The notes beneath the pieces were generated by a model. It did not search any database, had not been told where the DNA came from, and was given only the letters and a program-made list of their open reading frames with translations. The translations under genes were made by a program, and so were the position numbers. From Ranitomeya imitator (Eukaryota), in the NCBI RefSeq assembly GCF_032444005.1, contig NC_091283.1, positions 30,752,001 to 30,816,000 of the forward strand: a DNA stretch of 64,000 nucleotides, given 5' to 3'. Of the stretch, positions 21,004 to 63,403 are shown piece by piece (the first letter of the stretch is position 1; every line of letters starts with the position of its first letter).

Positions 21004-23903
21004 ATGGACAGGAGTCATAAAATGGCTGAGCAGATATTAAGCCTCACCCTGGAGATCATCTACCTGCTGACCGGAGAGGTGAGGACTTGTCGTAATTGTC
21101 ATATGATGTGACTCTGGATAAAGATGAGGCGAGAGATGATGAGTGATGTATATCAGTACGTCTCTCTGTACACAGGATTACACAGTCGTGAAGAAATCTG
21201 GTGAACGTGGGACAACCAGCTCCGATCACCAAGCATCAGGAGGATGGAGTGAGATCAGAAGTGCCATCATGGTGCCTCCACCTCCATCACCGATGCATGA
21301 GAGAAGCAACGAGCAGAAGATCGTGGAGATCACCAATAAGATCCTGCAGGTGGTGACCGGAGAGGTGAGCGCTGCCGAGGACGCCGGGACCTTATATAAT
21401 GTGTCTGGGTGATGACGGGACCGTTGTGTTGTCAGGTCCCAATGAGGTATCAGGACGTCACCGTCTATCTCTCCATGGAGGAGTGGGAGTATATGGAAGA
21501 ACACAAGGACCAGTACAAGGACGTCCTGATGGAGGACCCCCAACCCCTAGCAACAACCATTAAAGAGGAGACTGCCCATAAACATAAAGGTGGGCTTGTG
21601 ACTTATTTATTTTATGTTTTTCTCTGTCATCTGCCTCCTTCCGGACTAGTGAGGCAGACTACGCTCTTCTATATTGTATTCTGATGTACGTCAGCCTGAT
21701 GAAGGCCAAAATGAGACTATTTGTCCTCTGTTGAGTTTTCCTGGCACATGTCAGTGTGAATTCAGCTTGATCCGTACATGTTCAGTAACCTTATCCGTGT
21801 TTCTTACAGATGGACCAAGGCACAGTCCCTCACCAGAAAGTTGTCCCTGTCTAGTTTATTGTAAGGAAGGTCCAGGAGAAAATCCAAATGTCCCTCAGGA
21901 TCGACAGGTAGAAGAATCCTTCGACAAGGACATGAAGTGCCACAAGTAGACATCACTGCGTTATACTGTATATCATTTACTGCATCTTTGTTTTAGAACA
22001 ATGACCTGATTATTGTGAAAGTGGAAGAGATGGAGGGAGACGAGGAGTATTACAGAAGTGACGACCTGAAGAGGGAAGAGGAAACTCCGAGTAATGTCAG
22101 CACAGGTGAGTAATAACTGGACAAGAGAGAAGAGCCAACACACAAGCCGACCTGCCTCCCCGTGTAGGGGGGACGCTCAACGCTTCCTGACGGTTGATAT
22201 CAGGGCAGATCGGTATGAAACAGCTTGAAGTTCAATACGTGAGCCTTTTGTTCTCGGGAAAGATCAGCTGACCCCAGATCTGTCTGTCCAAACCTTTCTT
22301 GCCGTCCTCTATCTACTGAGAACCCATGGACCCTCGGCTAAGCCTTTATGAATGACCATATTCATGCTTCCTCATCCCAATTGTTAGCACAGTCTAAATC
22401 TCTGTTCCCAGCAGTGTCGTTCTCTCTTGTACTCGGCTCCGGAGGTCTGATGTCCCCCATTATAAGTTGACGAGATGAATTCTTCCAGACATAGGAGGTT
22501 CTCGCGTGTTCTATATCTTTTGGGTGTACGGAGCGGGATCTGGAAAATCAATTTCTCCATCTTCGGCAGCTACTGACTGTGACATACAGCCAACACCTGC
22601 CCCTAACAGCAATAAACGGAGCTCTGATCTCTGCTATTTAACCATTTTCGTGCCTCTGACAGTAGCATTTCAATGGCCCAGTCATTCCAGCATCCATCAG
22701 CTGAGCCACAGGCCGGGCTTCACTGGAGACCAGTGATTTTTTTTTTTATGCCCTGGAATATTAAAGTATTCCATTATTCCGTACAAGAGATTAAATAATC
22801 ATAAGTTCGAGTCCCATAAGGGCACTACAAAATAACGTAAAACGTAAAAATATATATATAAAAGTTTTAAATCACAAATTGAAAAATAAACATTTGATAG
22901 CATCGCGTCTGTAAAAATCCAATTTATCAAAATACAAAAAATTTAACCCATATGTTTAACTGAACTCCTCCGGGTGGATTTTTAACTGCATCAAAACTTT
23001 CTTGCGGTCACAAATCAGCTTAGAGGAATTTAGTAGAAGCCAGATGTGCGATATAATCACTGCTGTCATAACAATTGTACACGGAAGCTGCAAAAAGATT
23101 GACTTTTTATGAAAATGGCCCATGAATCCAAGATAGGGAGATCTTGGGTTCCCTACTGGGGACATAGACTCCTGATATATGGCATTAGGGTCTTGGTGTC
23201 CATCTACCACCTCTTTTTCTTCCCAGCAGATGTTCCTCTGAGCCTCGGCTGCGGTCCGCTCCCGTCATCTTCAGATTATTCGTCAAACATTAATATCTCA
23301 CCGACTACTTATGGACAGCCGTTTATTACCATAAACTTTCCTTCCCTCATCACCGGCGGCAATCTGCTGTCTGTTCCCACCACGGTCCTACAGCCATCAT
23401 CTGATCAGTCACAGGCTCCACGGCTGCCTCCAAAGGCCAGAGGAGAGAAGAAGCCGAACAACCGCAGAACCGAGGGACGATTTCCTTGTGCGGAATGTGG
23501 AAAAAGTTTTGCGATGAGATCAAACTTCCTGGAACATCTGAAAGTTCACACAGTGGAGAAGCCGCTCTCGTGTACCGTGTGCGGGAAGTGTTTCAAGCGG
23601 AAATCAGATCTCGTCAGACACCAGAAAACTCACACCGGGGAGAAGCCGCACTTGTGCACAGAATGCGGGAAACGTTTCGCCATTAAATCAAACCTCTTTG
23701 CGCATCACAGAATCCACACAGGAGAGCGGCCGTTCCCGTGTTCCGTGTGTGGGAAATGTTTCATCCAGAAGTCAGATCTGGTTGTGCATCAGATCGCTCA
23801 CACAGGGGAGAAGCCGTTCGGTTGTAGAGTGTGCGGGAAATATTTTAACCGGAAAAGAAGTCTTGTCCGACATGAGAGAATCCACATGAGAGATAAGTCA
23901 TAG
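21004..23903 (+). CDS. ZNF gene 2: KRAB-like C2H2 zinc-finger protein, ~433 aa, 5 fingers. Exons 21004-21078, 21176-21364, 21436-21589 (inferred shifted donor), 21810-21907, 21997-22105, 23227-23903
   Basis: Same exon architecture as gene 1. The usual KRAB-exon donor at 21560 is mutated; an in-frame AAG|GTGGGC donor lies 30 nt downstream. NAGNAG acceptor before the finger exon. Confidence 0.82.
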
Positions 23904-26713: not shown

Positions 26714-27748
26714 TAGAACGAAGCATGGGTCACAAGGACCCGAAAAAAGACCTCAAAGTCCATACAGAACAATATATATCAATAATCTTTATTAACCATT
26801 AAAACAATGTTTTAGACAGTACAAAACAGGTAAGGTAGGATACCACATGGTGTACACGGACACCGCACCGACGTGTAATATACCACAGGCGCACAGAACC
26901 AGGGAAAGAAAACACCTGCATATATGAACAGCTTATAAAAAGACTAAAGCCTACCCAGACCAAATATCTAAATTGCAACTAGTCTGTACAAATAGCGATG
27001 CCATCTCTAACAGGAGCATAGGTGCACAGTGCTAAATATAATTATCAACCGTAGCTCTGCATACAACATGGCAATAAAGCTGAGTCAAATGTACAAAGAT
27101 AGATTTTGGAATATACGTTACCTCTTAATAGAGTGCAATGTGTAAGCTTCCCCCCGGGTCCGTATGCCCACCCCGACGCGCGTTTCGGTCGCACATCTTC
27201 TTCAGGGGGCATGTACATTTGACTCAGCTTTATTGCCATGTTGTATGCAGAGCTACGGTTGAAGATGTGCGACCGAAACGCGCGTCGGGGTGGGCATACG
27301 GACCCGGGGGAAGCTTACACATTGCACTCTATTAAGAGGTAACGTATATTCCAAAATCTATCTTTGTACATTTGACTCAGCTTTATTGCCATGTTGTATG
27401 CAGAGCTACGGTTGATAATTATATTTAGCACTGTGCACCTATGCTCCTGTTAGAGATGGCATCTCTATTTGCACAGACTATTTGCAATTTAGATTTTTGG
27501 TCTGGGTAGGCTTTAGTCTTTTTATAAGCTGTTCATATATGCAGGTGTTTTCTTTCCCTGGTTCTGTGCGCCTGTGGTATATTACACGTCGGTGCGGTGT
27601 CTGTGTACACCATGTGATATCCTACCTTACCTGTTTTGTACTGTCTAAAACATTGTTTTAATGGTAAATAAAGATTATTGATATATATTGTTCTATATGG
27701 ACTTTGAGGTCGTTTTTTTCGGGTCCTTGTGACCCATGCTTCTTTCTA
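26714..27748. repeat. ~1-kb fold-back (two ~500-bp inverted arms), probably inverted Penelope-like pseudo-LTRs
   Basis: TAGAACGAAGCATGGGTCACAAGG... is mirrored by ...CCTTGTGACCCATGCTTCTTTCTA. The centre carries a hammerhead-like motif CCCC-CTGAAGA..GAAAC-GCGC-GTC-GGGG on the minus strand (27171-27209). Confidence 0.8.
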
Positions 27749-29334: not shown

Positions 29335-30788
29335 TTAAGTGATTGTCGGCGTATTTCAGTAGGACGACAGTCGTGAAGCGGGCCTATGAACAATCCTTTC
29401 CCAATAATCGGCCACGATGAGTGAACCTCAAGGCCTGGTTCGCATGTTGGGTATTTGGTGCGGATTTTCCAGCAATCGTAATCTAATCCTTGTGCTACAT
29501 TCTTGTTGGTTTGGAATCCGCTAGGCCCCCGGCCTGTGTCGTGTTTTCTAAGCCCACCACAGGTCAATTTCTGCAGTGAACATGTATCTTTTTACTGCAG
29601 ATTTTACTCATTTCAATTACTTTAAATCCACAGATTAAAACCTTGGTCGGACATTGCTCTGCTCCATCTTTTAAGTCCATTTATGTAAATAAAAACCGAA
29701 AACACATAATGCATGAGTAGTGTATAAGCGGGTGGTTTCGTCAAACTCAATCTGACAGGTGCCCCGCCCCTATCAAAGTGTATCAAAGTGTGTAACCCCT
29801 CCCCTCCCCTTGTTTGACGGCTGGTATCCAGCTGTCCCTCCTTGTTTGATTTCCCCTTTTGATATAGTTTAATATAGTTTAATTTGTTGTAGTTTTGATA
29901 TTATTCCCGTATTTTGTGGAATAACACATGTTTATAATTATAGCCTAGTCGTGTATTTATTTTACACGTGGTTTATAACACCTTTCTCATTTGTTTATAA
30001 TAGATTTTATACGTATCCCCGAGTTTGATTCTGTAAGCTTTTGTTTTATTCACAGTGTATTCATATAGTGGAGAACTTAAAGCTGTTTATATGTGTCTCT
30101 ACTGAACACTATGGTGAACATTAACTAAATGTTTATTTTCCCAAACAGAGAATCTGCTGTGGGTATTTGCAGTGTATTCATATAGTGGAGAACTTAAAGC
30201 TGTCTATTTGTTTTTGTAAATGGTGAACACTAACTAAATGGTGAACATTATCTAAATTAGGTTAACTGCGGTTCAGAGGTTCATAACACCTAGGTCAAGC
30301 AATTGTTGTTGTATTTGCGTACCCCATAAATGTTTATTTCCACAAACAGAAAAGTTATTGTGTCCTGAAGATGGCATCTGAGGTTATTTGTTATCTACTG
30401 AGGCCATTGCAAGCTGTGTTTATTCACATTGTAGCAGGTTTTATCCTTGTGGCTGCCTTATATACACAGAAGAGATATGCACCAATGTCACAACACAAGT
30501 TATAATATGACCCAATGTTACAATACAAGTAAGAAGCGGCGTGTTTTATACGAATAAAAACCAAAGACACGATATTGTAAAAAAAATTTAAAAGATTTAT
30601 TTCTCACGATAAAACAGCATCTCAAAGACATTTCAACACTATAAAAAATTCTTACAGAATATAAAAAGTAAAAACATTACAATACAGTAATATGACAGTA
30701 CAGTAACAGTACAATGATCAATTACACTTCTTACAAAATAATTAATATAGCGTTACAAGGCGTGTACAGCATTTATCCAGTACATTCT

Positions 30789-31559
30789 TTACATCGTGAG
30801 CCACATGGTTTGTAGCAGCGGTAGAGACCTTTTTTTAGGTAGCAAAGTTCCACGTGTGGTACCTAATGACGGGGAATGTAAAGATTGAATTGTACGGGGT
30901 GACGCCGCTAACTTCAGCGGTGTAGATACAGAGCGTGTCTCACTGTTGGTAATTTTTAATTCATCTAAAAGCTTCCTAGTAGCGGGGTTACCCACAACTG
31001 TAGACGGCATATTTAGCTCTGCCATAGCCTGCATAAATGAATCCCAACCCGGCGGTAAATTTCTACTGTTCAGAGCATGACTCTGCGTTGTACTACGTAC
31101 CAAATCCAGTAAGTTAGACCCTGGTATTACGGATCCTTTGAAAATAAATTCAGCATTATTATTCCATGCTGTGACATTTTTATTCTGCAGCAGCCTGTTT
31201 AGTAAAAATTCAGCATTCTTTTTATATCTTTGGTTTATATGGCCGACAATTTCAGCGATCTCATGATTTTTATCAGAGTCGGTATTTGGCAATTGCTGCT
31301 GACCAGGATCAGGAGGGCTAACGAGATTTAAAGCCGTTACTTCTCTTGAGCTGTGCCTCGTATGTACCAAGTAGCGTTGTAGCACAGCGCTATACATTTT
31401 AATTTTCACATCATCGGGAATGTCACGACGCTGTAAAATGTCGCTAATCTCACCATCAAGGCGCCGAATAACACTGTCGCGTATGTTATCTGTAGTACCG
31501 GGTCTTAGTTTGTCTAGCTCCTGTTTGGGGACTAGATACATTTTCGTTGTATGCTCCAT
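30789..31559 (-). CDS. Maverick/Polinton conserved accessory protein, 256 aa (left-arm copy)
   Basis: MEHTTKMYLVP..RLDGEISDILQR..DDVKIKMYSAVLQRYL and WNNNAEFIFKGSVIPGSNLLDLV..PPGWDSF..LNMPSTVVGN match my recollection of a conserved Polinton ORF. Not database-verified. Confidence 0.75.
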   Translation of the reverse strand: MEHTTKMYLVPKQELDKLRPGTTDNIRDSVIRRLDGEISDILQRRDIPDDVKIKMYSAVLQRYLVHTRHSSREVTALNLVSPPDPGQQQLPNTDSDKNHEIAEIVGHINQRYKKNAEFLLNRLLQNKNVTAWNNNAEFIFKGSVIPGSNLLDLVRSTTQSHALNSRNLPPGWDSFMQAMAELNMPSTVVGNPATRKLLDELKITNSETRSVSTPLKLAASPRTIQSLHSPSLGTTRGTLLPKKRSLPLLQTMWLTM

Positions 31560-31693
31560 TATCTTCCGGCGATCAGGCTTGTTATTATTGGGATTGCAAA
31601 AGCTAAAAGAGGACCGATAAACCCGCCGGCCTGTTTTAGTAGGCGCTTCTTTTTCTTTATGGGCTGAGACCTGTCGCCAGTGATTTTTGCACT
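31559..31693 (-). pseudogene. Same truncated small-protein remnant (left arm)
   Basis: Mirror of 41659-41793. Confidence 0.7.
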
Positions 31694-32564
31694 TTATTAA
31701 CATACAACACACAAGAAATAGACATTTAGAACTTATTTATGATTAATATGCGATTATTAGGCATTTAGGACTTATGTTATCATGTTTTTGCACTTTATTA
31801 ATATGCGGTTATTAGTCATTTAGGACTTATGTTATCATGTTTTTGCACTTTATTAATATGCTGACCACATAGGTCAGGGATTTTTTGTACTTTATTAATA
31901 TGCGGGCCACAAACACTTCTGCACCCACGGGCGCTTCTCAACCAACCATGCATCCGGTACTCATCAGGCACTGTGAAATAATGCAAAAATACATCTGTGC
32001 GCGGCTGTCGGCATCAACATTGTGCTATTATAAGTTTATGGTTCTGTAAAGAACACGCAACACATACAGAACTCACACACACACACAAATACACACAGCA
32101 CACAACACGCACACATTTCTCAAAATGCCATACACTTCAGAATATATTTGCAATTCACTACGCATGTAACACATATTTCTTCGCCCCACACGCATTTAAC
32201 AGTCTTTCATATGTATCGCAGAAAGATTTTAGTTCCAACTGCGGGTCAGCGGCTTAAAGAAAAGTTATTGTGGCCTTGATTCTGGGGTAACACATGTTTA
32301 TAAATATAGCCTAGTCGTGTATTTATTTTACACATGGTTTATAACACATTTCATGGCCTTGATTCTGGGGTAACACATGTTTATAAATATAGCCTAGTCG
32401 TGTATTTATTTTACACATGGTTTATAACACATTTCATTTGTTTTTGTTGTTTGATTGTCATGTAAGAAGCGTTGTGTTTTATACGAATATAAAAGTGACA
32501 CATTCCCATATATTATTACAGCTTTCATTAATTCTACATTATTTTAGCACATATTAATTTTACA

Positions 32565-32739
32565 CTATTAATTTTACAGGAGCCTGTGCTGCCTATAATT
32601 TGACTCCTTTTTATACAAAGACATCTAACATATACAGACTTTTAATATTTTTGTGTAAAATCGCGGTCAGACAGGCACAAACACACACACACACACACAC
32701 ACGCACACAACACAGAACCACACACAACAAACACACAGA

Positions 32740-32773
<34 letters not shown>

Positions 32774-33786
32774 GAAATAGACATTTAGGACTTATTTATG
32801 TTATTATCTTTATGCACTTTGAATGTGCTGTCTATAATTTGACTCTATCCTTGTTTTGTTGAAAATAACTGGACATACATAAGAAACCGGGCAATATATC
32901 TTTATAGAAATAACACTTCTGCACTCTTTGTGTATTTCTATCAGTTTTATTCAGGCATTTATAACACAACATGTTTGATATTGGTAATTTGATTCTGGGA
33001 ACACATTTTAAGTTACTGCTGCACATGTATTACTGTTTTTCTTGTTTTTTGTGTAAAATTTCGTTGTTGGTTTACAAAGACATTTCTTTGAGAAATGTGT
33101 AGCATAACCAATTACCCATCACGGCCACTAGATGGCAGAATATCATATTAATTATTCTGGGATAACATTTCTCTTTGTGCCTATTAATTTTACAGGAGCC
33201 TGTGCTGCCTATAATTTGACTCCTTTTTATACAAAGACATCTAACATATACAGACTTTTAATATTTTTGTGTAAAATCGCGGTCAGACAGGCACAAACAC
33301 ACACACACACACACACGCACACAACACAGAACCACACACAACAAACACACAGAACCCACACACACACACACACACACAAGAAATAGACATTTAGGACTTA
33401 TTTATGTTATTATCTTTATGCACTTTGAATGTGCTGTCTATAATTTGACTCTATCCTTGTTTTGTTGAAAATAACTGGACATACATAAGAAACCGGGCAA
33501 TATATCTTTATAGAAATAACACTTCTGCACTCTTTGTGTATTTCTATCAGTTTTATTCAGGCATTTATAACACAACATGTTTGATATTGGTAATTTGATT
33601 CTGGGAACACATTTTAAGTTACTGCTGCACATGTATTACTGTTTTTCTTGTTTTTTGTGTAAAATTTCGTTGTTGGCTTACAAAGACATTTCTTTGAGAA
33701 ATGTGTAGCATAACCAATTACCCATCACGGCCACTAGATGGCAGAATATCATATTAATTATTCTGGGATAACATTTCTCTTTGGGC
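32565..33786. repeat. Tandem duplication (616 + 606 bp) with CA microsatellites, left arm; mirrored at 39566-40787
   Basis: CTATTAATTTTACAGGAGCC at 32565 and 33181; duplicated ORFs offset by 606. Confidence 0.92.
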
Positions 33787-34349
33787 ATTTCTATCAGTTT
33801 TATTTATGCTTTTATAACACAACATGTCTGCTATTGTTAATTTGATTCGGGGATAACACATGTTTATAAAAATAACGCTATAGCAAGCGGTAATGTCAAA
33901 TTCTGAAAATAGCCATTTTATATTGAATTACTAACATTTTTCTATTTTAGCGCTGACACAGCCACATATATTATTCCAGCTTTCTTTAATTCTGCATTAT
34001 TTTATCACATGATGAAAATAGTCATTTTATATTGAATTACTGCAGCTCGCGGCGCGTTACCACTGGTCTCGTTTCTCAATTAATTTCCCAGCTGACGACG
34101 CTATCTATAATTCTGCGTATACCTTAGGCGTGTATTTACATGACAGTGTAATTATTTCTCACAATAAAACAACAGCTCAAATTTTAAGTTAGCTAACAGC
34201 ATAATGATGACAAATGCATCTTTGCGGAATCTGATAACGACACGCTGAACAAAGGACGGAGCCTGACAAATACACACAACACACAACACGCACATATTAT
34301 GAAAAATGACAACCATTGTATGTGATTTAAAAAACTTTAGTTAGATTTA

Positions 34350-36095
34350 TCAGGGGTGATTTAGTTTGAAAGCACGCAGCTCCTCGGTAATGTCATGTGT
34401 TGGACACGCATTTAACAGTCTTTCATATGTATCGCAGAAAGATTTTAGTTCCATCTGTGCGAGTTTGCTTTGAGCGTACTGCGCAGACATGTCAGTAAAC
34501 ATTTTGACATGGTCAGCATCCCACGAAGGACGACCTGTGTAAGGTGTATGTACAGCAACTTTCTGCTTTCTACCTACACGGCGTCGGGATACGGTTCGTT
34601 TCTTTAGAGGTAATACAGGGGCAAAAACGCTAGAAAAGTCTGCAAGAGCAGTATCTGCAGATTGCACAGTCTGGCACACAGGTATATTGAGGGGCTCTGT
34701 GGGTGACCACAGACCCTCGGAGAGCTGCTCAATTTCTCTGTTTTCAGGCGTAACTTGGGGTATGGCGCCTGTGCTATTGGCGGGCCGTGTTATGCGGGGC
34801 CGAGCGTTCGGCGCTGCACGTTTCTCTCTTGAAACGTTCGTATATTTCTGATGTGAAATCTTGGGGCTTGGATTCCCGGGTTGTTTTGGTGCAGCGTAGC
34901 ATTCATCACGATCCACAACACAGATGGGCGAGAGAGATGTTGTTCGCACCGCCGTATTAGCTCTTTGTGGTTGATTCTCTTCAGTGTCGTAATTACGCCA
35001 GTGCAAAACTCGTTGTTGAAGAGGCGACGTATCTAAAAGAAAAGATACAAGTGGCGGTTAGCCGCGAAACGGCGCAAAATTGGAAAAGCTAAACGGCGAC
35101 GCATAGCTATGATCATACGTAATATTTGAAAAGTTAATGGGGACAGGTAGCCATGAAATCATTGTAACAATATTTACATAAACCTGTATAGAGCAGTCCA
35201 GATATATACTTACAAGTATGAAGCGGGAATTGTCCCACATCAGCTCCTGGTTTAACGGGAGGCGCAATGCTCAAACTCGCAGAGGCGGGAATATTCTCTT
35301 TTTCAAGCTGTATTTTCCGGGCAACTAGATTAGCGGGTGTAAGTAAAAATATAACGATTAGCGAACACAGAATTGATTTTCTACACAAAACTGCAGCGGT
35401 GAGAAGAATATATATATATTCAAAAATGAATTTTCTGACAGTTAGCTAGCAGCTGTAAGTAAATATGAGTATTACACAAAAGTGAGAATCGACTGTATTT
35501 CAAGTGAACAGATACCTTTTCTATTCTTGAAACATCGGTGTAACGAGTTGCCGCGTCTTTTAGGCGCATCGGGTTTCGCTGAAGTTGCAGGGTTCTTGAC
35601 ATCTATGATCTCCACGTCTGAACCCAGCGTATCGCGTGGTTCGGGAACACACCAGTTTTCAGCCATAGCGTCAGATGTCTCCGTGTCAGTATCTGTATGA
35701 GAAATTGCGCGTAGTTCGTGTTTACATACAAAGGATTAAAGCAACTGATATAGTATAATATAGTTTTACGGTATAAACATATTTGCGGTGTAAATTAATA
35801 TAGCAAGACTTATGCCGCTATATATTAATAATTCAGTATTATATTGACGGCTACCGCTATTATTTGTTTTATTAATTTAATCATATATTTATTATGCCAT
35901 AATTTGTGTAATACAATAGTTAATAGATGCTATAGTTTTACGCCATAAACAGTATATATTAACATAGATAATATATATATATATATATATATTTAGCTTT
36001 CTTACATGTGATACATGAAAGATAAATATCTTTGTACCGTGTTACAATGACATTTTTCCCTATCTAAAAGCAAAAAGGTGCTCCTAATTACCCAT
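34350..36095 (-). CDS. Mirror copy of the three-exon 287-aa gene. Exons 36092-36095, 35516-35692, 34350-35032
   Basis: Exact reverse complement of the right-arm model. Confidence 0.65.
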
Positions 36096-36309
36096 GATGA
36101 GATGAAGAGCAGGCCCATTATCGGCTATCGGCGCCACGGCTTCAATGCGCGCATAATTCTGCGTTATGAAATTATTGCGCCAATCGGGCGACATACACGG
36201 CTCTTAAATAAGAAAGAATGCATGAATATATAATTAATATAATTTACTTATAATATAATGACACAATCAGAATGAGTCAATACTCTGTACATTATACGCG
36301 TATAATACC

Positions 36310-37042
36310 TAATTGTGTGCTTGCAAGAAGGGGGCTGCATTGCTCGCGAGGGTATTGGGCGTCCATCTTAAATAAATAGGGGATAAGTTTTATCTATAAC
36401 TGCGCCGCCAATAAATACAGTTTAAAACTACGTTACAAAAATATGCTTTACAGGCATTGATAATATTAGACCGCAAATAAAACAGTAAACACCTACTTTT
36501 CAGAGAGTAGCGCAACTGTTCAGAGAGAAATTACCACCCACCGTGAACACACCTACAGGAAACCGCATTATACGCCACCCGTGACTAATTGCGCGCACAT
36601 GTCAGATAACAATGGTTGTTATGACTCAGCCATAAGCCTTTCTATATTAATTATGTCCCACAAATATTGCTTATACAGTAAAAACTATATTATACATCGC
36701 TACTAAATATGCAGTTAGCTGCCAGTATAACACTAACTTATTAAACAAATAACATCCTTAATTATGGTTTAGAGATGCATAGTTAAATATAATTATGCAT
36801 TTGCGAATAATAACACAACTGTCTTATATACTTACATTTAGAATAGCTCTGCTTTTTATCCTAGTCGGACTTCTGGTGGATGTCTGTTGTACTGTAGTGG
36901 GACAGTCAGCTGTATTTATCCTGAGTGTCAGAAAGCAACTCAGGTGTTAACACCCAGAAACACACCCAGTTACGCCACATCACACGCCTTCTGTTAACAC
37001 CCAGAACACAGTCATACATGCAATTAATGCATGTATTAACTC
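36310..37042. other. Unique 733-bp central spacer of the palindrome
   Basis: Not self-complementary; no ORF of 60 aa or more; contains TGTTAACACCCAGAA twice and near-palindrome TTAATGCATGTATTAA (37024-37039). Confidence 0.9.
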
Positions 37043-37256
37043 GGTATTATACGCGTATAATGTACAGAGTATTGACTCATTCTGATTGTGTCATTATATT
37101 ATAAGTAAATTATATTAATTATATATTCATGCATTCTTTCTTATTTAAGAGCCGTGTATGTCGCCCGATTGGCGCAATAATTTCATAACGCAGAATTATG
37201 CGCGCATTGAAGCCGTGGCGCCGATAGCCGATAATGGGCCTGCTCTTCATCTCATC

Positions 37257-39002
37257 ATGGGTAATTAGGAGCACCTTTTTGCTTTTAGATAGGGAAAAAT
37301 GTCATTGTAACACGGTACAAAGATATTTATCTTTCATGTATCACATGTAAGAAAGCTAAATATATATATATATATATATATTATCTATGTTAATATATAC
37401 TGTTTATGGCGTAAAACTATAGCATCTATTAACTATTGTATTACACAAATTATGGCATAATAAATATATGATTAAATTAATAAAACAAATAATAGCGGTA
37501 GCCGTCAATATAATACTGAATTATTAATATATAGCGGCATAAGTCTTGCTATATTAATTTACACCGCAAATATGTTTATACCGTAAAACTATATTATACT
37601 ATATCAGTTGCTTTAATCCTTTGTATGTAAACACGAACTACGCGCAATTTCTCATACAGATACTGACACGGAGACATCTGACGCTATGGCTGAAAACTGG
37701 TGTGTTCCCGAACCACGCGATACGCTGGGTTCAGACGTGGAGATCATAGATGTCAAGAACCCTGCAACTTCAGCGAAACCCGATGCGCCTAAAAGACGCG
37801 GCAACTCGTTACACCGATGTTTCAAGAATAGAAAAGGTATCTGTTCACTTGAAATACAGTCGATTCTCACTTTTGTGTAATACTCATATTTACTTACAGC
37901 TGCTAGCTAACTGTCAGAAAATTCATTTTTGAATATATATATATTCTTCTCACCGCTGCAGTTTTGTGTAGAAAATCAATTCTGTGTTCGCTAATCGTTA
38001 TATTTTTACTTACACCCGCTAATCTAGTTGCCCGGAAAATACAGCTTGAAAAAGAGAATATTCCCGCCTCTGCGAGTTTGAGCATTGCGCCTCCCGTTAA
38101 ACCAGGAGCTGATGTGGGACAATTCCCGCTTCATACTTGTAAGTATATATCTGGACTGCTCTATACAGGTTTATGTAAATATTGTTACAATGATTTCATG
38201 GCTACCTGTCCCCATTAACTTTTCAAATATTACGTATGATCATAGCTATGCGTCGCCGTTTAGCTTTTCCAATTTTGCGCCGTTTCGCGGCTAACCGCCA
38301 CTTGTATCTTTTCTTTTAGATACGTCGCCTCTTCAACAACGAGTTTTGCACTGGCGTAATTACGACACTGAAGAGAATCAACCACAAAGAGCTAATACGG
38401 CGGTGCGAACAACATCTCTCTCGCCCATCTGTGTTGTGGATCGTGATGAATGCTACGCTGCACCAAAACAACCCGGGAATCCAAGCCCCAAGATTTCACA
38501 TCAGAAATATACGAACGTTTCAAGAGAGAAACGTGCAGCGCCGAACGCTCGGCCCCGCATAACACGGCCCGCCAATAGCACAGGCGCCATACCCCAAGTT
38601 ACGCCTGAAAACAGAGAAATTGAGCAGCTCTCCGAGGGTCTGTGGTCACCCACAGAGCCCCTCAATATACCTGTGTGCCAGACTGTGCAATCTGCAGATA
38701 CTGCTCTTGCAGACTTTTCTAGCGTTTTTGCCCCTGTATTACCTCTAAAGAAACGAACCGTATCCCGACGCCGTGTAGGTAGAAAGCAGAAAGTTGCTGT
38801 ACATACACCTTACACAGGTCGTCCTTCGTGGGATGCTGACCATGTCAAAATGTTTACTGACATGTCTGCGCAGTACGCTCAAAGCAAACTCGCACAGATG
38901 GAACTAAAATCTTTCTGCGATACATATGAAAGACTGTTAAATGCGTGTCCAACACATGACATTACCGAGGAGCTGCGTGCTTTCAAACTAAATCACCCCT
39001 GA
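37257..39002 (+). CDS. Predicted three-exon gene of unknown function, 287 aa. Exons 37257-37260, 37660-37836, 38320-39002
   Basis: ATCATGG|GTAATT, CATACAG|AT, AAAG|GTATCT and CTAAC..(Y)n..TTAG|AT. Both introns are phase 1 and join the 64-aa and 218-aa ORFs in frame (864 nt). Exons 2-3 are better supported than the 4-nt first coding exon. Confidence 0.65.
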
Positions 39003-40578
39003 TAAATCTAACTAAAGTTTTTTAAATCACATACAATGGTTGTCATTTTTCATAATATGTGCGTGTTGTGTGTTGTGTGTATTTGTCAGGCTCCGTCCTT
39101 TGTTCAGCGTGTCGTTATCAGATTCCGCAAAGATGCATTTGTCATCATTATGCTGTTAGCTAACTTAAAATTTGAGCTGTTGTTTTATTGTGAGAAATAA
39201 TTACACTGTCATGTAAATACACGCCTAAGGTATACGCAGAATTATAGATAGCGTCGTCAGCTGGGAAATTAATTGAGAAACGAGACCAGTGGTAACGCGC
39301 CGCGAGCTGCAGTAATTCAATATAAAATGACTATTTTCATCATGTGATAAAATAATGCAGAATTAAAGAAAGCTGGAATAATATATGTGGCTGTGTCAGC
39401 GCTAAAATAGAAAAATGTTAGTAATTCAATATAAAATGGCTATTTTCAGAATTTGACATTACCGCTTGCTATAGCGTTATTTTTATAAACATGTGTTATC
39501 CCCGAATCAAATTAACAATAGCAGACATGTTGTGTTATAAAAGCATAAATAAAACTGATAGAAATGCCCAAAGAGAAATGTTATCCCAGAATAATTAATA
39601 TGATATTCTGCCATCTAGTGGCCGTGATGGGTAATTGGTTATGCTACACATTTCTCAAAGAAATGTCTTTGTAAGCCAACAACGAAATTTTACACAAAAA
39701 ACAAGAAAAACAGTAATACATGTGCAGCAGTAACTTAAAATGTGTTCCCAGAATCAAATTACCAATATCAAACATGTTGTGTTATAAATGCCTGAATAAA
39801 ACTGATAGAAATACACAAAGAGTGCAGAAGTGTTATTTCTATAAAGATATATTGCCCGGTTTCTTATGTATGTCCAGTTATTTTCAACAAAACAAGGATA
39901 GAGTCAAATTATAGACAGCACATTCAAAGTGCATAAAGATAATAACATAAATAAGTCCTAAATGTCTATTTCTTGTGTGTGTGTGTGTGTGTGTGGGTTC
40001 TGTGTGTTTGTTGTGTGTGGTTCTGTGTTGTGTGCGTGTGTGTGTGTGTGTGTGTTTGTGCCTGTCTGACCGCGATTTTACACAAAAATATTAAAAGTCT
40101 GTATATGTTAGATGTCTTTGTATAAAAAGGAGTCAAATTATAGGCAGCACAGGCTCCTGTAAAATTAATAGGCACAAAGAGAAATGTTATCCCAGAATAA
40201 TTAATATGATATTCTGCCATCTAGTGGCCGTGATGGGTAATTGGTTATGCTACACATTTCTCAAAGAAATGTCTTTGTAAACCAACAACGAAATTTTACA
40301 CAAAAAACAAGAAAAACAGTAATACATGTGCAGCAGTAACTTAAAATGTGTTCCCAGAATCAAATTACCAATATCAAACATGTTGTGTTATAAATGCCTG
40401 AATAAAACTGATAGAAATACACAAAGAGTGCAGAAGTGTTATTTCTATAAAGATATATTGCCCGGTTTCTTATGTATGTCCAGTTATTTTCAACAAAACA
40501 AGGATAGAGTCAAATTATAGACAGCACATTCAAAGTGCATAAAGATAATAACATAAATAAGTCCTAAATGTCTATTTC

Positions 40579-40612
<34 letters not shown>

Positions 40613-41658
40613 TCTGTGTGTTTGTTGTGTGTGGTTCTGTGTTGTGTGCGTGTGTGTGTGTGTGTGTGTGTTTGTGCCTGTCTGACCGCGATTTTACACA
40701 AAAATATTAAAAGTCTGTATATGTTAGATGTCTTTGTATAAAAAGGAGTCAAATTATAGGCAGCACAGGCTCCTGTAAAATTAATAGTGTAAAATTAATA
40801 TGTGCTAAAATAATGTAGAATTAATGAAAGCTGTAATAATATATGGGAATGTGTCACTTTTATATTCGTATAAAACACAACGCTTCTTACATGACAATCA
40901 AACAACAAAAACAAATGAAATGTGTTATAAACCATGTGTAAAATAAATACACGACTAGGCTATATTTATAAACATGTGTTACCCCAGAATCAAGGCCATG
41001 AAATGTGTTATAAACCATGTGTAAAATAAATACACGACTAGGCTATATTTATAAACATGTGTTACCCCAGAATCAAGGCCACAATAACTTTTCTTTAAGC
41101 CGCTGACCCGCAGTTGGAACTAAAATCTTTCTGCGATACATATGAAAGACTGTTAAATGCGTGTGGGGCGAAGAAATATGTGTTACATGCGTAGTGAATT
41201 GCAAATATATTCTGAAGTGTATGGCATTTTGAGAAATGTGTGCGTGTTGTGTGCTGTGTGTATTTGTGTGTGTGTGTGAGTTCTGTATGTGTTGCGTGTT
41301 CTTTACAGAACCATAAACTTATAATAGCACAATGTTGATGCCGACAGCCGCGCACAGATGTATTTTTGCATTATTTCACAGTGCCTGATGAGTACCGGAT
41401 GCATGGTTGGTTGAGAAGCGCCCGTGGGTGCAGAAGTGTTTGTGGCCCGCATATTAATAAAGTACAAAAAATCCCTGACCTATGTGGTCAGCATATTAAT
41501 AAAGTGCAAAAACATGATAACATAAGTCCTAAATGACTAATAACCGCATATTAATAAAGTGCAAAAACATGATAACATAAGTCCTAAATGCCTAATAATC
41601 GCATATTAATCATAAATAAGTTCTAAATGTCTATTTCTTGTGTGTTGTATGTTAATAA

Positions 41659-41793
41659 AGTGCAAAAATCACTGGCGACAGGTCTCAGCCCATAAAGAAA
41701 AAGAAGCGCCTACTAAAACAGGCCGGCGGGTTTATCGGTCCTCTTTTAGCTTTTGCAATCCCAATAATAACAAGCCTGATCGCCGGAAGATAA
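41659..41793 (+). pseudogene. 5'-truncated remnant of a Maverick small basic protein ending in a GGF-amphipathic helix (right arm)
   Basis: A frame not listed in the ORF track reads SAKITGDRSQPIKKKKRLLKQAGGFIGPLLAFAIPIITSLIAGR*. Its TAA overlaps the next ATG (TAATG). Confidence 0.7.
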
Positions 41794-42563
41794 TGGAGCA
41801 TACAACGAAAATGTATCTAGTCCCCAAACAGGAGCTAGACAAACTAAGACCCGGTACTACAGATAACATACGCGACAGTGTTATTCGGCGCCTTGATGGT
41901 GAGATTAGCGACATTTTACAGCGTCGTGACATTCCCGATGATGTGAAAATTAAAATGTATAGCGCTGTGCTACAACGCTACTTGGTACATACGAGGCACA
42001 GCTCAAGAGAAGTAACGGCTTTAAATCTCGTTAGCCCTCCTGATCCTGGTCAGCAGCAATTGCCAAATACCGACTCTGATAAAAATCATGAGATCGCTGA
42101 AATTGTCGGCCATATAAACCAAAGATATAAAAAGAATGCTGAATTTTTACTAAACAGGCTGCTGCAGAATAAAAATGTCACAGCATGGAATAATAATGCT
42201 GAATTTATTTTCAAAGGATCCGTAATACCAGGGTCTAACTTACTGGATTTGGTACGTAGTACAACGCAGAGTCATGCTCTGAACAGTAGAAATTTACCGC
42301 CGGGTTGGGATTCATTTATGCAGGCTATGGCAGAGCTAAATATGCCGTCTACAGTTGTGGGTAACCCCGCTACTAGGAAGCTTTTAGATGAATTAAAAAT
42401 TACCAACAGTGAGACACGCTCTGTATCTACACCGCTGAAGTTAGCGGCGTCACCCCGTACAATTCAATCTTTACATTCCCCGTCATTAGGTACCACACGT
42501 GGAACTTTGCTACCTAAAAAAAGGTCTCTACCGCTGCTACAAACCATGTGGCTCACGATGTAA
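41793..42563 (+). CDS. Maverick/Polinton conserved accessory protein, 256 aa (right-arm copy)
   Basis: Identical to the left copy. ATG in good Kozak context (ATAATGG); AATAAA downstream at ~42750. Confidence 0.75.
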   Translation: MEHTTKMYLVPKQELDKLRPGTTDNIRDSVIRRLDGEISDILQRRDIPDDVKIKMYSAVLQRYLVHTRHSSREVTALNLVSPPDPGQQQLPNTDSDKNHEIAEIVGHINQRYKKNAEFLLNRLLQNKNVTAWNNNAEFIFKGSVIPGSNLLDLVRSTTQSHALNSRNLPPGWDSFMQAMAELNMPSTVVGNPATRKLLDELKITNSETRSVSTPLKLAASPRTIQSLHSPSLGTTRGTLLPKKRSLPLLQTMWLTM

Positions 42564-43933
42564 AGAATGTACTGGATAAATGCTGTACACGCCTTGTAAC
42601 GCTATATTAATTATTTTGTAAGAAGTGTAATTGATCATTGTACTGTTACTGTACTGTCATATTACTGTATTGTAATGTTTTTACTTTTTATATTCTGTAA
42701 GAATTTTTTATAGTGTTGAAATGTCTTTGAGATGCTGTTTTATCGTGAGAAATAAATCTTTTAAATTTTTTTTACAATATCGTGTCTTTGGTTTTTATTC
42801 GTATAAAACACGCCGCTTCTTACTTGTATTGTAACATTGGGTCATATTATAACTTGTGTTGTGACATTGGTGCATATCTCTTCTGTGTATATAAGGCAGC
42901 CACAAGGATAAAACCTGCTACAATGTGAATAAACACAGCTTGCAATGGCCTCAGTAGATAACAAATAACCTCAGATGCCATCTTCAGGACACAATAACTT
43001 TTCTGTTTGTGGAAATAAACATTTATGGGGTACGCAAATACAACAACAATTGCTTGACCTAGGTGTTATGAACCTCTGAACCGCAGTTAACCTAATTTAG
43101 ATAATGTTCACCATTTAGTTAGTGTTCACCATTTACAAAAACAAATAGACAGCTTTAAGTTCTCCACTATATGAATACACTGCAAATACCCACAGCAGAT
43201 TCTCTGTTTGGGAAAATAAACATTTAGTTAATGTTCACCATAGTGTTCAGTAGAGACACATATAAACAGCTTTAAGTTCTCCACTATATGAATACACTGT
43301 GAATAAAACAAAAGCTTACAGAATCAAACTCGGGGATACGTATAAAATCTATTATAAACAAATGAGAAAGGTGTTATAAACCACGTGTAAAATAAATACA
43401 CGACTAGGCTATAATTATAAACATGTGTTATTCCACAAAATACGGGAATAATATCAAAACTACAACAAATTAAACTATATTAAACTATATCAAAAGGGGA
43501 AATCAAACAAGGAGGGACAGCTGGATACCAGCCGTCAAACAAGGGGAGGGGAGGGGTTACACACTTTGATACACTTTGATAGGGGCGGGGCACCTGTCAG
43601 ATTGAGTTTGACGAAACCACCCGCTTATACACTACTTGCATGAATAGAAGCAGAAAATAAACTCGGATTTTAGATGCAGAAACTTTGCAGACTGCAGTTG
43701 AGAAATCAATGCATGTTCACGTGATGTGTTCCTGATGGGGTTTTGCGCTGACATTTTGCAAAAATTAAGTGAATTCACCTGATTTTACCACGTTTGGGTA
43801 AACATCAAATTCCGCATCAGGAACATATCATGTGAACAATGTCGAAAACTGCATCAAATACACAAATGTCCTGAATGCAGGTTTAGCTTGGAGAGTTCAG
43901 CTCTGAAGCCTGAGGTCATGTTCCAACATAGTA

Positions 43934-50904: not shown

Positions 50905-53900
50905 ATGGACACGAGTCCCAAGAGTCCCAACAAGACTGTGCAGATCCTAGACCTGACCCTGGAGATCATCTACCTGCTGACCGGAGAGGTGAGGACCCGT
51001 GAGTCCTAACAATGGAGGCCGCATGATCAGAAATCTTTCAAACTTTCAGAAATGTATATAGTAGAGTTGAGCAGAAACATTGTTCTTCCCCGGTTCTGCG
51101 TCCAGTGCAGCCCTCCGAGGCGGACAGACCTGTGTTGTGTTCTCTCCTGGCATTGACTAGGCCCCGCGATGTCACGATGTGGCGGTGCTAGTAAATGCCC
51201 AGGACGCCGTCTGAGAAGGGAACACTGCCTTGGACTGGACACCGGATGAGATCAGCACCTGCTCATCTCTAGTATTTTCGTCTCAGCTGCAGTTTCATAC
51301 ATCCACCATTTGGGGCGCTATATTATGACCTTTACTAGGCTGAATTATAGTTATTCGGGACAAGTAATATATACAAATTTTCATATGCAAATTGGTAACT
51401 TATTTTCATAAATTATCAACCTAAAAGGGGTTGTGCTGTAAATTGGATGGGATTCGGCCATTCAAGTCTATTAATGCAAGAGAAAAATCGGTTGCCATAC
51501 AGAGCCACAATCTAGCGATCAATTCTTACGGATACATTGCAGTTCTGTAACATAGGGAACTGTAAATGATCTTGTAGGAGATTAATAGCTGCTGCTGTAA
51601 AAATACAGTTTGTACACGGATGACAAGTGAGAAAATAAATCGTCACACTTTTCTGGATGAAGAAAGTTAGAGGCACTCACCAGTGTCCATACCCAGTGTC
51701 TATAAAAAGATTGTTTGTTTGTTTTTTAAATTTCAAATCTTCCTTGAAACCATCTCTGTGGCAGAGGGAGCGGAGTGAGAGCGGCAGAGGGAGCGGAGAG
51801 AGAGCGGCAGAGGGAGTAGAGAGAGCGGCAGAGGGAGCATGGTGAGAGAGCGGCAGAGGGAGCGGAGAGAGAGCGGCAGAGGGAGCGGAGAGAGAGCGGC
51901 AGAGGGAGCGGAGTGAGAGCGGCAGAGGGAGCGGAGTGAGAGTGGCAGAGGGAGCGGAGTGAGAGTGGCAGAGGGAGCATGGTGAGAGTGGCAGAGGGAG
52001 CGGAGTGAGAGTGGCAGAGGGAGCATGGTGAGAGTGGCAGAGGGAGCATGGTGAGAGTGGCAGAGGGAGCGGAGTGAGAGCGCAGAGGGAGCATGGTGAG
52101 AGTGGCAGAGGGAGCTGAGAGAGAGTGGCAGAGGGAGCATGGTGAGAGTGGCAGAGGGAGCATGGTGAGAGTGGCAGAGGGAGCATGGTGAGAGTGGCAG
52201 AGGGAGCATGGTGAGAGCGGCAGAGGGAGCATGGTGAGAGTGGCAGAGGGAGCGGAGTGAGAGCGCAGAGGGAGCGGAGTGAGCGGCAGAGGGAGCGGAG
52301 TGAGAGTGGCAGAGAGAGCAGAGAGAGCGGCAGAGGGAGCATGGTGAGAGTGGCAGAGGGAGCGGAGAGAGAGCAGCAGAGGGAGCATGGTGAGAGTGGC
52401 AGAGGGAGCATGGTGAGTGGCAGAGGGAGCATGGTGAGAGCGGCAGAGGGAGCATGGTGAGAGTGGCAGAGGGAGCATGGTGAGAGTGGCAGAGGGAGCG
52501 GAGAGAGAGCGGCAGAGGGAGCATGGTGAGAGCGGCAGAGGGAGCATGGTGAGAGCGGCAGAGGGAGCATGGTGAGAGTGGCAGAGGGAGCGGAGAGAGA
52601 GCGGCAGAGGGAGCATGGTGAGAGTGGCAGAGGGAGCGGAGTGAGAGTGGCAGAGGGAGCGGAGTGAGAGTGGCAGAGGGAGCATGGTGAGAGTGGCAGA
52701 GGGAGCATGGTGAGAGTGGCAGAGGGAGCATGGTGAGAGTGGCAGAGGGAGCGGAGTGAGAGTGGCAGAGGGAGCGGAGTGAGAGTGGCAGAGGGAGCAT
52801 GGTGAGAGTGGCAGAGGGAGCGGAGTGAGAGTGGCAGAGGGAGCGGAGTGAGAGTGGCAGAGGGAGCATGGTGAGAGTGGCAGAGGGAGCATGGTGAGAG
52901 TGGCAGAGGGAGCATGGTGAGAGTGGCAGAGGGAGCATGGTGAGAGTGGCAGAGGGAGCGGAGTGAGAGTGGCAGAGGGAGCGGAGTGAGAGTGGCAGAG
53001 GGAGCATGGTGAGAGTGGCAGAGGGAGCGGAGTGAGAGCGCAGAGGGAGCGGAGTGAGCGGCAGAGGGAGCGGAGTGAGAGTGGCAGAGAGAGCAGAGAG
53101 AGCGGCAGAGGGAGCATGGTGAGAGTGGCAGAGGGAGCGGAGAGAGAGCAGCAGAGGGAGCATGGCGAGAGTGGCAGAGGGAGCATGGTGAGAGTGGCAG
53201 AGGGAGCATGGTGAGTGGCAGAGGGAGCATGGTGAGAGCGGCAGAGGGAGCATGGTGAGAGTGGCAGAGGGAGCATGGTGAGAGTGGCAGAGGGAGCATG
53301 GTGAGAGTGGCAGAGGGAGCATGGTGAGAGTGGCAGAGGGAGCGGAGTGAGAGTGGCAGAGGGAGCGGAGTGAGAGTGGCAGAGGGAGCGGAGTGAGAGT
53401 GGCAGAGGGAGCGGAGTGAGAGTGGCAGAGGGAGCATGGTGAGAGTGGCAGAGGGAGCATGGTGAGAGTGGCAGAGGGAGCATGGTGAGAGTGGCAGAGG
53501 GAGCATGGTGAGAGTGGCAGAGGGAGCATGGTGAGAGTGGCAGAGGGAGCGGAGTGAGAGTGGCAGAGGGAGCATGGTGAGAGTGGCAGAGGGAGCGGAG
53601 TGGGAGTGGCAGAGGGAGCGGAGTGAGAGTGGCAGAGGGAGCATGGTGAGAGTGGCAGAGGGAGCATGGTGAGAGTGGCAGAGGGAGCATGGTGAGAGTG
53701 GCAGAGGGAGCATGGTGAGAGTGGCAGAGGGAGCGGAGTGAGAGTGGCAGAGGGAGCGGAGTGAGATTGGCAGAGGGAGCGGAGTGAGATTGGCAGAGGG
53801 AGCATGGTGAGAGTGGCAGAGGGAGCATGGTGAGAGTGGCAGAGGGAGCATGGTGAGAGTGGCAGAGGGAGCATGGTGAGAGTGGCAGAGGGAGCGGAGT

Positions 53901-56900: not shown

Positions 56901-58843
56901 TAACATTTAGGGCTGATGACTGTATCATCGTGTGTTAGGACGTCGCTGCCCATCGCGCCATGGAGGAGTGGGAGGATATGAAAGGACACAAGGACCAGGG
57001 CAAGGATGTCATGATGGAGGTTCCTCGGCCCCTCACGCCACCGGGTAAGAGGAGATTGTCCAGGAGAAAGCAGTTCTGTGGCTCAGGTAGACTCACAATC
57101 TGTATTTAGTAACTTCGCTTCTTCTTACAGAAGCATCGGGTAATATTCCCTCACCAGAGAGTTGTCCCCGTCCTCTTAACCCTCAGGAAGGTCCAGAAAA
57201 AAATCCCAAAGTCTCCCAGGATCAACAGGTAGAAATATGGCCACGAGCAGACATCGCTCCGTTCTACTGTACTTCATTTAATGCATTTTTGTTTTAGACC
57301 GACAGCCTGATTATTGTGAAAGTGGAAGATACGGAGGGAGACGAGGAGTATTACGGAAGTGACGACCTGAAGAGGGAAGAGGAAACCCCGACTAATGTCA
57401 GCGCAGGTGAGTAATAACTGAGAGAAAAGCCACATTGTCGCCATCTTCTTCTACACCTGCTCTATCGGCACTACCAAAAAAAGGTTAAAAAACCTGTAAA
57501 ATTGGAATCACTCTTTTCACCTTTTAAAAATATTCAGTTTGTTTGTGAGAAGCGTTTGTAAACTTCCGACACACCGAAACCAAAATTATCTAACTCGTAC
57601 GATAAAAGTCGTAACGCAAAAAAACAAATGATTGAAATCCGGAATTCACGTTTTTTTGGTCGCTGCATCTCCGCAAAAAATAAAAACAAAAAGAGATCAC
57701 CGAAATGGTGTAAATCGCAATGCCGCGGTACTTTAAACAAAAAAAAAAAACAACAAGCCTTCAAAATTACGGGTCTGTAAAAGTGGCGAAACAAGGGAAA
57801 TATTTTAATTTTTTTTTTTTTTTTTACAAATTTCAGAATATTTTTTTCATCACTAAAATTAATTTAAAAAAATGGACAAGTTTGGAGTCATGAACGCCGT
57901 AAAAATAAATGGATTTCCCCCCCCCATTTTTCAGCACTACAACATGTCCCACAAAAAAATAAACTTCTAGTACGGCCATGGGAATAGAGAGATAAATAAA
58001 AAGTTATGGCTTTTGGAAGAAAAGGAGGAAGAAAGCAAAAAAAAAAAAAAATGCAAAAATGAAAATTGTCTGTGGCGGGAAGAGGGTTAAGACGTAAGTT
58101 GTGGCCCCTCCACCCCATGCACTTTCTCTGCCGGCCGGACGCTCCTTCCTGACTTGTTGGACCAATGTCTCTTTCTTTTATTCCTAACAGATGCCGCCCC
58201 GAGCCTCGGCTACAGTCCTCATTCTTCAGGTTGTGAAGCGGAGCCTAATGGCACACAAAGTATTAACAAACTGCAAAACATGACCATGAACATCTCCTCC
58301 ATGATCCACAGCGGAGATCCGTTATCCGTCCACAATACCCTCATACAACCTTCATCCGATCCCTCACAGGCTCCACACCTGATTCCAGGAGGTGAGAACC
58401 AGATCAACGATCCCAATAACAAGGGGCCATTTCCCTGCCCGGTATGCGAAAAACTTTTTAACATCAGATCGAACTTATTTCATCACATAAAAATTCACCC
58501 GGTGAAGCCGATCTGCGCCATGTGCGGGAAATGTTTCAAGCGGAAAACGGATCTCATCAGACACCAGAAAACTCACAAAGGGGAGAAGCCGTTGTTGTGT
58601 TCAGAATGCGGGAACCTTTTCACCGTCAAAACAGATCTTTTACCGCTTGTCACAGAGGAGCAACCGTTCCCACGTCCCATATGCGGGAAATGTTTCTTCC
58701 AGAAATCCGATCTTGCTGCACATCAAAATCAGGCGGCTCAAAAAGTGGAGAAGCCGCATAGATGTACGACGTGCGGGAAAGGTTTCATCCACAAAAGAAA
58801 TCTCGTACAACATGAAAAGACCCACACAAAAGAGAAGTCGTAG
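50905..58843 (+). CDS. ZNF gene 3: KRAB-like zinc-finger protein, 409 aa; 3 intact and 2 degenerate fingers. Exons 50905-50988, 56686-56865, 56939-57044, 57131-57228, 57298-57406, 58191-58843
   Basis: GT-AG introns and compatible phases (1230 nt). Exon-by-exon paralogy with gene 2. KRAB exon lacks its first six codons. Confidence 0.82.
51765..55650. repeat. ~3.9-kb purine-rich 23-bp minisatellite GGCAGAGGGAGC(ATGG/GGAG)TGAGAGT in an intron of ZNF gene 3
   Basis: Two interspersed unit variants; source of the 1300-aa LTMLPLPLSP ORFs. Confidence 0.97.

Positions 58844-61442: not shown

Positions 61443-63403
<1,961 letters not shown>

Follow-up and report, generated by a model that had tools for sequence, protein, structure and literature searches.

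How did a 13.9-kb palindrome come to lie in the genome of the frog Ranitomeya imitator, and what part, if any, did a 16-bp palindrome at the inner edges of its arms play in building it? The locus lies in a 64-kb stretch of DNA, analysed as a whole and referred to here as the window. The first-pass annotation, made from the letters of this stretch, proposed that a giant palindrome of Maverick type had arisen by fold-back or template switching at the short palindrome and, more speculatively, that the short palindrome was a hairpin-resolution site resembling the telRL site of phage N15. The first of these ideas, a giant palindrome of Maverick type, was supported by the ends, the target duplication and the mirrored arms of the element, which are laid out as follows:

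29716-43636, no strand: palindromic Maverick/Polinton-derived element, 13,921 bp, with AGTAGT...ACTACT ends
29710-29715, plus strand: target-site duplication TGCATG, left copy (6 bp)
43637-43642, plus strand: target-site duplication TGCATG, right copy (6 bp), direct and not mirrored
29716-36309, plus strand: left arm, 6,594 bp, mirrored in the right arm without mismatch
36310-37042, no strand: spacer (loop), 733 bp, nearly all of exon 1 of a spliced gene plus the region upstream of that gene
37043-43636, minus strand: right arm, exact reverse complement of the left arm, starting at the G/GT of the intron-1 donor

The element starts with AGTAGTGT and ends with ACACTACT, so that 5'-(AGT)2...(ACT)2-3' termini lie within its inverted repeats, and TGCATG is duplicated in direct orientation on both flanks. 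An (AGT)2//(ACT)2 end motif and a 6-bp target duplication are the features that excerpts of PMC8097293 give for vertebrate Mavericks. When the arms were compared base by base, 29716-36309 and 43636-37043 had 0 mismatches, after which mismatches appeared at 36310, 36312 and 36315 and continued onward; if the imperfect five-base extension is included, the arms measure 6,599 bp and the spacer 723 bp. Arms that are 100% identical, microsatellites included, could also reflect a fold-back artefact of long-read sequencing or assembly, and the right joint, which lacks read confirmation (the read reference ended at 37045), fits that explanation too. However, symmetry stops exactly at the AGTAGT ends, and the 6-bp duplication outside them is direct. 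Because a direct, unmirrored duplication cannot arise from a fold-back read, we consider an artefact extremely unlikely.

The identity of the two arms differs from what was seen across the family. In run X1, 1289 contigs were placed on 3.2 kb, with 351 at 99% identity or above, 351 at 95-99%, 440 at 90-95% and 147 below, and 938 of the 1289 were thus less than 99% alike. This spread points to a large, diverged family whose members differ by 1-10%, whereas both arms of the present element are identical.

C2H2 zinc-finger exons lie on either side of the element, at 14752-15354 (recognised by an 84-bp period) and at 23109-23903 and 58154-58843 (both detected with Pfam), and the element appears to have inserted into a cluster of zinc-finger genes. 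Other repeats also occur in the window. A 975-bp, MITE-like fold-back element lies at 26743-27717 (415-bp arms at 98%, 145-bp spacer), and a Tc1-type transposon lies at 61441-63405, with 213-bp inverted ends, a transposase frame at 61661-62734 and an interruption by a 336-bp near-perfect palindrome at 62737-63072. Long, G-rich tandem arrays at 51758-55648 (23-bp unit, about 170 copies) and 8734-10990 (34/102-bp unit) give rise to spurious frames of 800-1,365 aa.

Only two frames longer than 110 aa were found in each arm, neither with a Pfam family at threshold, and the intact pPolB, integrase, ATPase, protease and capsid genes of an autonomous Maverick were absent among the arm ORFs. The frame nearest the terminus is the following:

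30789-31562, minus strand: PZ-like Maverick gene of 257 aa that follows a truncated PM-like piece reaching to about 31700; mirrored at 41790-42563 (plus strand)

This 257-aa ORF is named in no database and matched no Pfam or NCBIfam family at threshold, and it had 1703 relatives at E<=0.001. It has a PM-like piece alongside, as does its closest named relative, a fused Ranitomeya variabilis model (P0004), the front of which we take to be ATPase-like followed by PM-like. If these parts of P0004 are read that way, the ORF would be PZ. This assignment follows from the order atp-pm-pz given for Maverick genes in excerpts of PMC8097293. A PZ query gave 9 pattern hits in viral_contigs and 116 hits in metagenome_contigs, none of which was confirmed as a related locus. 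For the predicted PZ model (pLDDT 82), no fold matched at E<=0.001 and nothing resolvase-like stood out among the matches, a result still compatible with family membership. The weak fold matches of the model, all below significance (E of at least 0.58, TM up to 0.33), were to adenovirus capsid chains (PDB) and to proteins named IIIa (BFVD).

Between PM and the spliced gene, nested repeats at 31700-34050 take the place of core genes. They include a 97% duplication of about 620 bp (32565-33192 / 33181-33802) and an 83-bp tandem pair. A 54-bp copy of the 3' part of the spliced gene (32188-32241 = 34404-34457) was also present and recurred among loose ends in runs X1 and X3. Rfam gave 0 matches within 29500-37300, and a bacterial promoter scan remained at chance level.

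The spliced gene spans the border between left arm and spacer, and it is the feature that allows the two junctions to be told apart. Its parts, with the two copies of the 16-bp palindrome, are:

36309-36366, minus strand: exon 1 of the spliced 379-aa gene, whose last codons, S-T-Q-L, supply the telRL-like flank at 36311-36321
36203-36308, minus strand: intron 1, 106 nt, GT-AG, with its joint 36202/36309 in run X5
36202-36092, 35692-35516, 35324-35214 and 35032-34350, minus strand: exons 2-5, mirrored at 37150-39002 (plus strand) without exon 1
36291-36306, no strand: 16-bp perfect palindrome ATTATACGCGTATAAT, native copy, at +3 to +18 of intron 1 as read on the minus strand
37046-37061, no strand: mirror copy of the 16-mer ATTATACGCGTATAAT, carried in the right arm

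The protein P0005 maps to the minus strand as five exons (34350-36366) separated by four introns, all GT-AG, and the translation equals P0005 exactly. P0005 is identical to a R. imitator protein with a 23-member cluster and had no Pfam, NCBIfam or Atlas match. At least 30 near-copies of the gene are annotated in R. imitator (23 + 7 cluster members), and relatives occur in R. variabilis. Contigs were compared from 4 of the 24 listed runs (X1, X3, X5 and X18). Run X5, which we guess to be RNA, contained four minus-strand intron joints at the P0005 introns, 36202/36309 included, with one acceptor 9 nt further upstream. The left junction was crossed by contigs from X1 (records 4 and 5), X3 (record 24, 36006-36750) and X5 (record 30). 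The start of X1 record 5 exactly at 36291 was set aside as evidence, as a variant at 36321 would explain it. Of 33 homologues from two species, 13 allowed the peptide across exon 1 and exon 2 to be read, as STQL in 10 and STPL in 3.

The donor GT of intron 1 occupies 36308-36307, and the 16-mer follows directly. Because exon 1 lies in the spacer while the donor and the 16-mer lie across the border, the left "junction" is the native border between exon 1 and intron 1, which leaves the right joint (37042/37043) as the sole new one. Since the right arm begins at the G/GT of the donor, the mirrored gene is without exon 1. No spliced joint from the spacer plus strand into exon 2 was listed in the 4 runs, in which depth at that position is low. 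RefSeq-type models without exon 1 (314-357 aa) could be mirror arms or isoforms and were left out of the counts. An annotated 499-aa model, P0021, joins the N-terminal part of a cytochrome P450 (PF00067) to exons 3-5 of the Maverick-borne gene, and is possibly a chimeric transcript from an insertion into a P450 gene.

The 16-mer was confirmed at both positions given by the first-pass annotation, each copy ending 3 bp inside its arm, and these were the only 2 matches at up to 3 mismatches in the 64 kb. The description of palindromes at both junctions is accurate as to their number, but the copies are mirror images of one site. With each copy carried by one of the perfectly mirrored 6,594-bp arms, the pair amounts to a single observation and not to independent support. 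Apart from AT-microsatellite palindromes, the 16-mer is the only perfect palindrome of at least 16 bp in the window. A role as the fold-back or template-switch point was not supported. The 16-mer is native intron-1 sequence, its hairpin energy is -0.6 kcal/mol (-1.0 for the left junction, z +1.0, and -20.4 for telRL), and folding on itself would produce a 4-nt loop centred at 36298/36299 with no spacer, whereas the observed loop is 733 nt. The 4 runs listed no joint centred on the 16-mer, a result without weight because short-word contigs are unable to reveal the centre of a perfect palindrome. The best reading is that the 16-mer is a native intronic passenger at the rejoin point, doubled only by lying inside the mirrored arms, where it could have supplied a few bases of pairing.

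The passenger reading leaves one point unexplained, namely that a perfect palindrome of at least 16 bp should be centred within 25 bp of a chosen point (p about 0.003), here 3 bp from the symmetry break. This proximity would be accounted for if the 16-mer region had served as a fold-back seed, in a parent with a second copy (or the donor plus the outer half) about 730 bp downstream that annealed as short inverted repeats do in Tetrahymena rDNA. The dyad around the right 16-mer is marginally extended by the four bases before the right donor (-4.2 kcal/mol, p 0.02-0.08), which fits such a seed, as do other diverged inverted repeats shared by arm and spacer nearby (83% over 65 bp, and 12/13 at the spacer end). 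Excerpts of PMC3734650 provide a precedent in a 42-bp inverted repeat beside a break. Against a seed, no third copy of the 16-mer was found in the window at up to 3 mismatches, and a contig from run X18, described below, turns back without the 16-mer. Moreover, annealing of this kind needs no self-palindromy, and self-folding would leave no spacer. We consider a seed in the 16-mer region unlikely.

A different function for the 16-mer, compatible with the origin favoured below, would be the binding of a protein dimer with a regulatory or replication-accessory role. The 16-mer would then be the most symmetric of a few related motifs clustered around the 5' end of the gene, and selection for arms that retain it would explain its place at the arm edge. 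A loose pattern does recur at 35764, 35936, 36292 and 36671, within 920 bp, compared to 2 matches in 50 kb outside the element, and the blocks at 35754 and 35926 are alike. However, this count is circular because the pattern was drawn from those same sites, and neither P0005 nor PZ has a Pfam or NCBIfam family at threshold, so no candidate protein emerges. A protein site is quite improbable in our judgement.

The spacer and its right end hold the following signals:

37014-37036, no strand: hairpin of -8.4 kcal/mol with a 9-bp perfect stem and a 5-nt loop, its end 6 nt short of the new joint; candidate break signal
37029-37041, plus strand: spacer end, inverted 12/13 match to left arm 35918-35930, with 0.09 matches expected in shuffles
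36631-36695, plus strand: spacer block, diverged inverted copy (83%, 65 bp, E 3e-11) of arm 35753-35814

The second near-palindrome that had been described beside the right junction, TTAATGCATGTATTAA at 37024-37039, is present with 7/8 pairs, and the 9-bp stem at 37014-37036 is its better register. The segment 37005-37045 folds at -8.4 kcal/mol (z -5.0; 0/200 shuffles). Across 3644 windows in arm and spacer, the hairpin is the third strongest locus, exceeded only by two GC-rich loci in exon 5, and its placement at the spacer end has a p of 0.001-0.006. As this hairpin was also chosen after the fact, it is no rarer than the 16-mer.

Comparison with the joints of sibling copies had been suggested in the first-pass annotation, and one contig bears on it. 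This X18 contig (about 92% alike; 54 letters, depth 5.6) runs through the spacer as far as 37038, where it switches strand and resumes at 35863, at a distance from the 16-mer, so that its break is nearly the same as that of the present element and its rejoin point different. Run X18 has poly-T and adaptor-like loose ends, and we take the library to be cDNA. An artefact of reverse transcription could account for the X18 joint, as could a 450-bp deletion at a later time or an additional copy of the 35753-35814 block. Ahead of the right donor the sequence is AA-CTC-G, compared to CAA-TTA-G in the native exon; as CTC and TTA are both leucine codons, the joint may originally lie at 37038.

The pairing between 37029-37041 and 35918-35930 is possibly an older fold-back seed, and this 12/13 match and the 83% block appear to be further signs of repeated inversion nearby. 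Spacer variants with a local go-back duplication were seen at 36632-36683 in runs X3 and X1, within the block that resembles arm 35753-35814. The axes of symmetry, expressed as coordinate sums, are about equally spaced, at about 72447 for the old inverted block, 72901 for the X18 joint and 73352 for the present palindrome. A 452-bp periodicity between these axes was rejected because the two units showed no particular likeness (score of 44, against a null mean of 33.6 and a null maximum of 56).

Fold-back or template switching was upheld as the likeliest origin of the palindrome, with the turning point elsewhere than first proposed. We think it probable that the element is a copy-back Maverick satellite, with the 16-mer as a passenger. 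Copying that began at the left end probably halted where the spacer ends (37038-37042), next to the 37014-37036 hairpin, and probably resumed by priming on the nascent strand itself at the border of exon 1 and intron 1. The arms, the two left ends, the target duplication, the gene structure, one native junction and one new joint were all demonstrated, and together they place both ends in a single parental end, with one native junction and one new break/rejoin joint, as expected of copy-back. The geometry suggests that the polymerase would have switched to the nascent strand, and we counted the stem-plus-loop arrangement in favour of copy-back because it matches that of copy-back genomes in excerpts of PMC13506859.

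Such an element could form in a few steps. That Mavericks replicate by protein priming and strand displacement is a view derived mostly by analogy with adenovirus. The polymerase of a helper Maverick would copy in this manner from the left end through the spacer, and the 3' end would be released at the spacer end, where the break was likely set, perhaps with the help of the 9-bp hairpin. Re-annealing at 36309-36314 through a few paired bases would then allow 6.6 kb to be copied back to the terminus, giving two left ends. A helper integrase would insert the product, generating the 6-bp duplication, and re-copying of one arm from the other would keep the arms identical while family members differ. 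Several points weigh against copy-back: the closeness of the 16-mer to the symmetry break is unexplained, the spacer-end hairpin was chosen after the fact, the X18 joint is a single contig of depth 5.6 from a run with poly-T and adaptor-like loose ends, and the dyad at the right 16-mer is extended as described above.

The likeness to telRL raises the alternative that the junction serves in the resolution of hairpin telomeres, as a relative or analogue of N15 telRL that a protelomerase-like enzyme would cut in trans. The telRL sequence given in the first-pass annotation agrees with record AF064539, and our best alignment was to the reverse strand of that record, with a score of 38. The core is, as claimed, that of telRL less one CG. 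The flank, described as the same 10-mer at 5-nt spacing, aligns as an 11-nt match after 4 mismatches. The likeness was correctly placed on one side only, with 20/27 identities on the spacer side (central two bases dropped) compared to 13/27 on the arm side.

Controls did not often match this well, in answer to the call for a chance estimate. A score of 38 was reached by 0 of 100,000 random 60-mers and by 0 of 100,000 whose centre was a random 16-bp palindrome (2 of these scored 36), which favours a telRL-like site, while 357 of 100,000 random 60-mers reached it when the present 16-mer was held fixed. These tests were made after the fact against one fixed target. As telRL was picked post hoc from an uncounted set of known motifs, in a scan of very many windows, p values of this size would be expected now and then. 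By blastn, the junction matched N15 telRL at 34 bits (E 4 in 2.3 Gb; 3 of 25 records), a further point for the site. However, it matched giant phages better (37 bits, in the rows where bits differ), and telRL itself matched giant-phage sequence at the same 34 bits (24 of 36 records, nearly all under hypothetical-protein genes), compared to 58-102 bits against its true relatives.

Two features of the phage sites are missing in the frog. The central TACGCGCGTA, common to N15 and PY54 in excerpts of PMC3540006, was present in 7/7 telRL-family sites (AF064539, AY374448 and five others), whereas the frog centre is ATACGCGTAT. Two-fold symmetry over about 50 bp was 23-25/25 in 7/7 phage sites, and 12/25 (left) and 14/25 (right) in the frog. 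The matching flank also encodes the exon-1 codons S-T-Q, which vary among homologues. The statement that no resolvase is encoded here held in a tblastn search with TelN, which gave no match below E 9 in the 64-kb window. The 16-mer was found in 4 IMG/VR contigs, none with extended symmetry (7-12/30) or with a TelN match below E 3.7 within 2.5 kb, and the pattern of 16-mer plus flank had 0 matches in genome_contigs.

A hairpin-resolution site of telRL type is thus not supported, given the missing extended symmetry and invariant core, the coding flank and the resolvase search, and its probability is extremely low in our view. The likeness is real and probably coincidental, as palindromy together with AT richness imposes half of it and the flank consists of codons. 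The first-pass annotation was right to caution that the match might be coincidence. A genuine site of resolution or flipping, converged on the telRL design within a Maverick lineage, is also a very unlikely role for the 16-mer, although the reading can be stated in full. A helper enzyme would nick it or resolve it into hairpin ends, and the palindromes would be integrated replication intermediates of a hairpin-ended satellite. Jointly with this, and no more probable, a hairpin opened off centre would have left behind the four bases that precede the right donor. The extension of the dyad at the right 16-mer is the sole positive hint for this reading.

Because a spliced gene crosses one of the two junctions, native and new junctions could be told apart and break and rejoin coordinates obtained. 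With a high-copy family in which such points can be mapped, the mode of Maverick replication becomes testable from genome data, including whether the spacer-end hairpin fixes the break. The telRL lead is closed as most likely coincidence. No description of giant palindromic Maverick derivatives was found in the searched literature, with subscription papers largely outside it, and no paper linking a protelomerase with a Polinton was found in literature that had Repbase entries and subscription papers outside it.

Compared to known systems, the frog site shares with an N15 telRL/phiKO2-type protelomerase target (AF064539, AY374448) the core ATTATACG...CGTATAAT and the one-sided 11-nt flank match, and differs in a core 2 bp shorter, without extended two-fold symmetry, with a coding flank and with no resolvase found. 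The element resembles vertebrate Mavericks, as excerpts of PMC8097293 describe them, in its end motif, its 6-bp duplication, its size towards the lower limit of the 12.7-24.6 kb range, and an outward-pointing PZ-like gene beside the terminus, as expected if modules point apart as in cane toad elements. Unlike them, it has inverted repeats of 6,594 bp rather than 46-1,447 bp, two left ends, and no polymerase, integrase, ATPase, protease or capsid frame among its arm ORFs, and it carries a five-exon gene, whereas Maverick core ORFs are described there as intronless. With the Tetrahymena rDNA palindrome (via excerpts of PMC3734650) it has in common a large palindrome, a central spacer and, by our reading, fold-back-primed synthesis. 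The Tetrahymena seed is a 42-bp inverted repeat pair beside a programmed break, whereas the 16-mer here is self-complementary, with no such pair shown. Copy-back or snap-back defective viral genomes, in excerpts of PMC13506859, likewise combine an unpaired loop with a stem that arises when one end is copied back along the nascent strand, and they share what would be a dependence on a helper. Those genomes are described mainly for negative-strand RNA viruses, whereas here the product is a 13.9-kb DNA element in a vertebrate genome, 95% of it stem.
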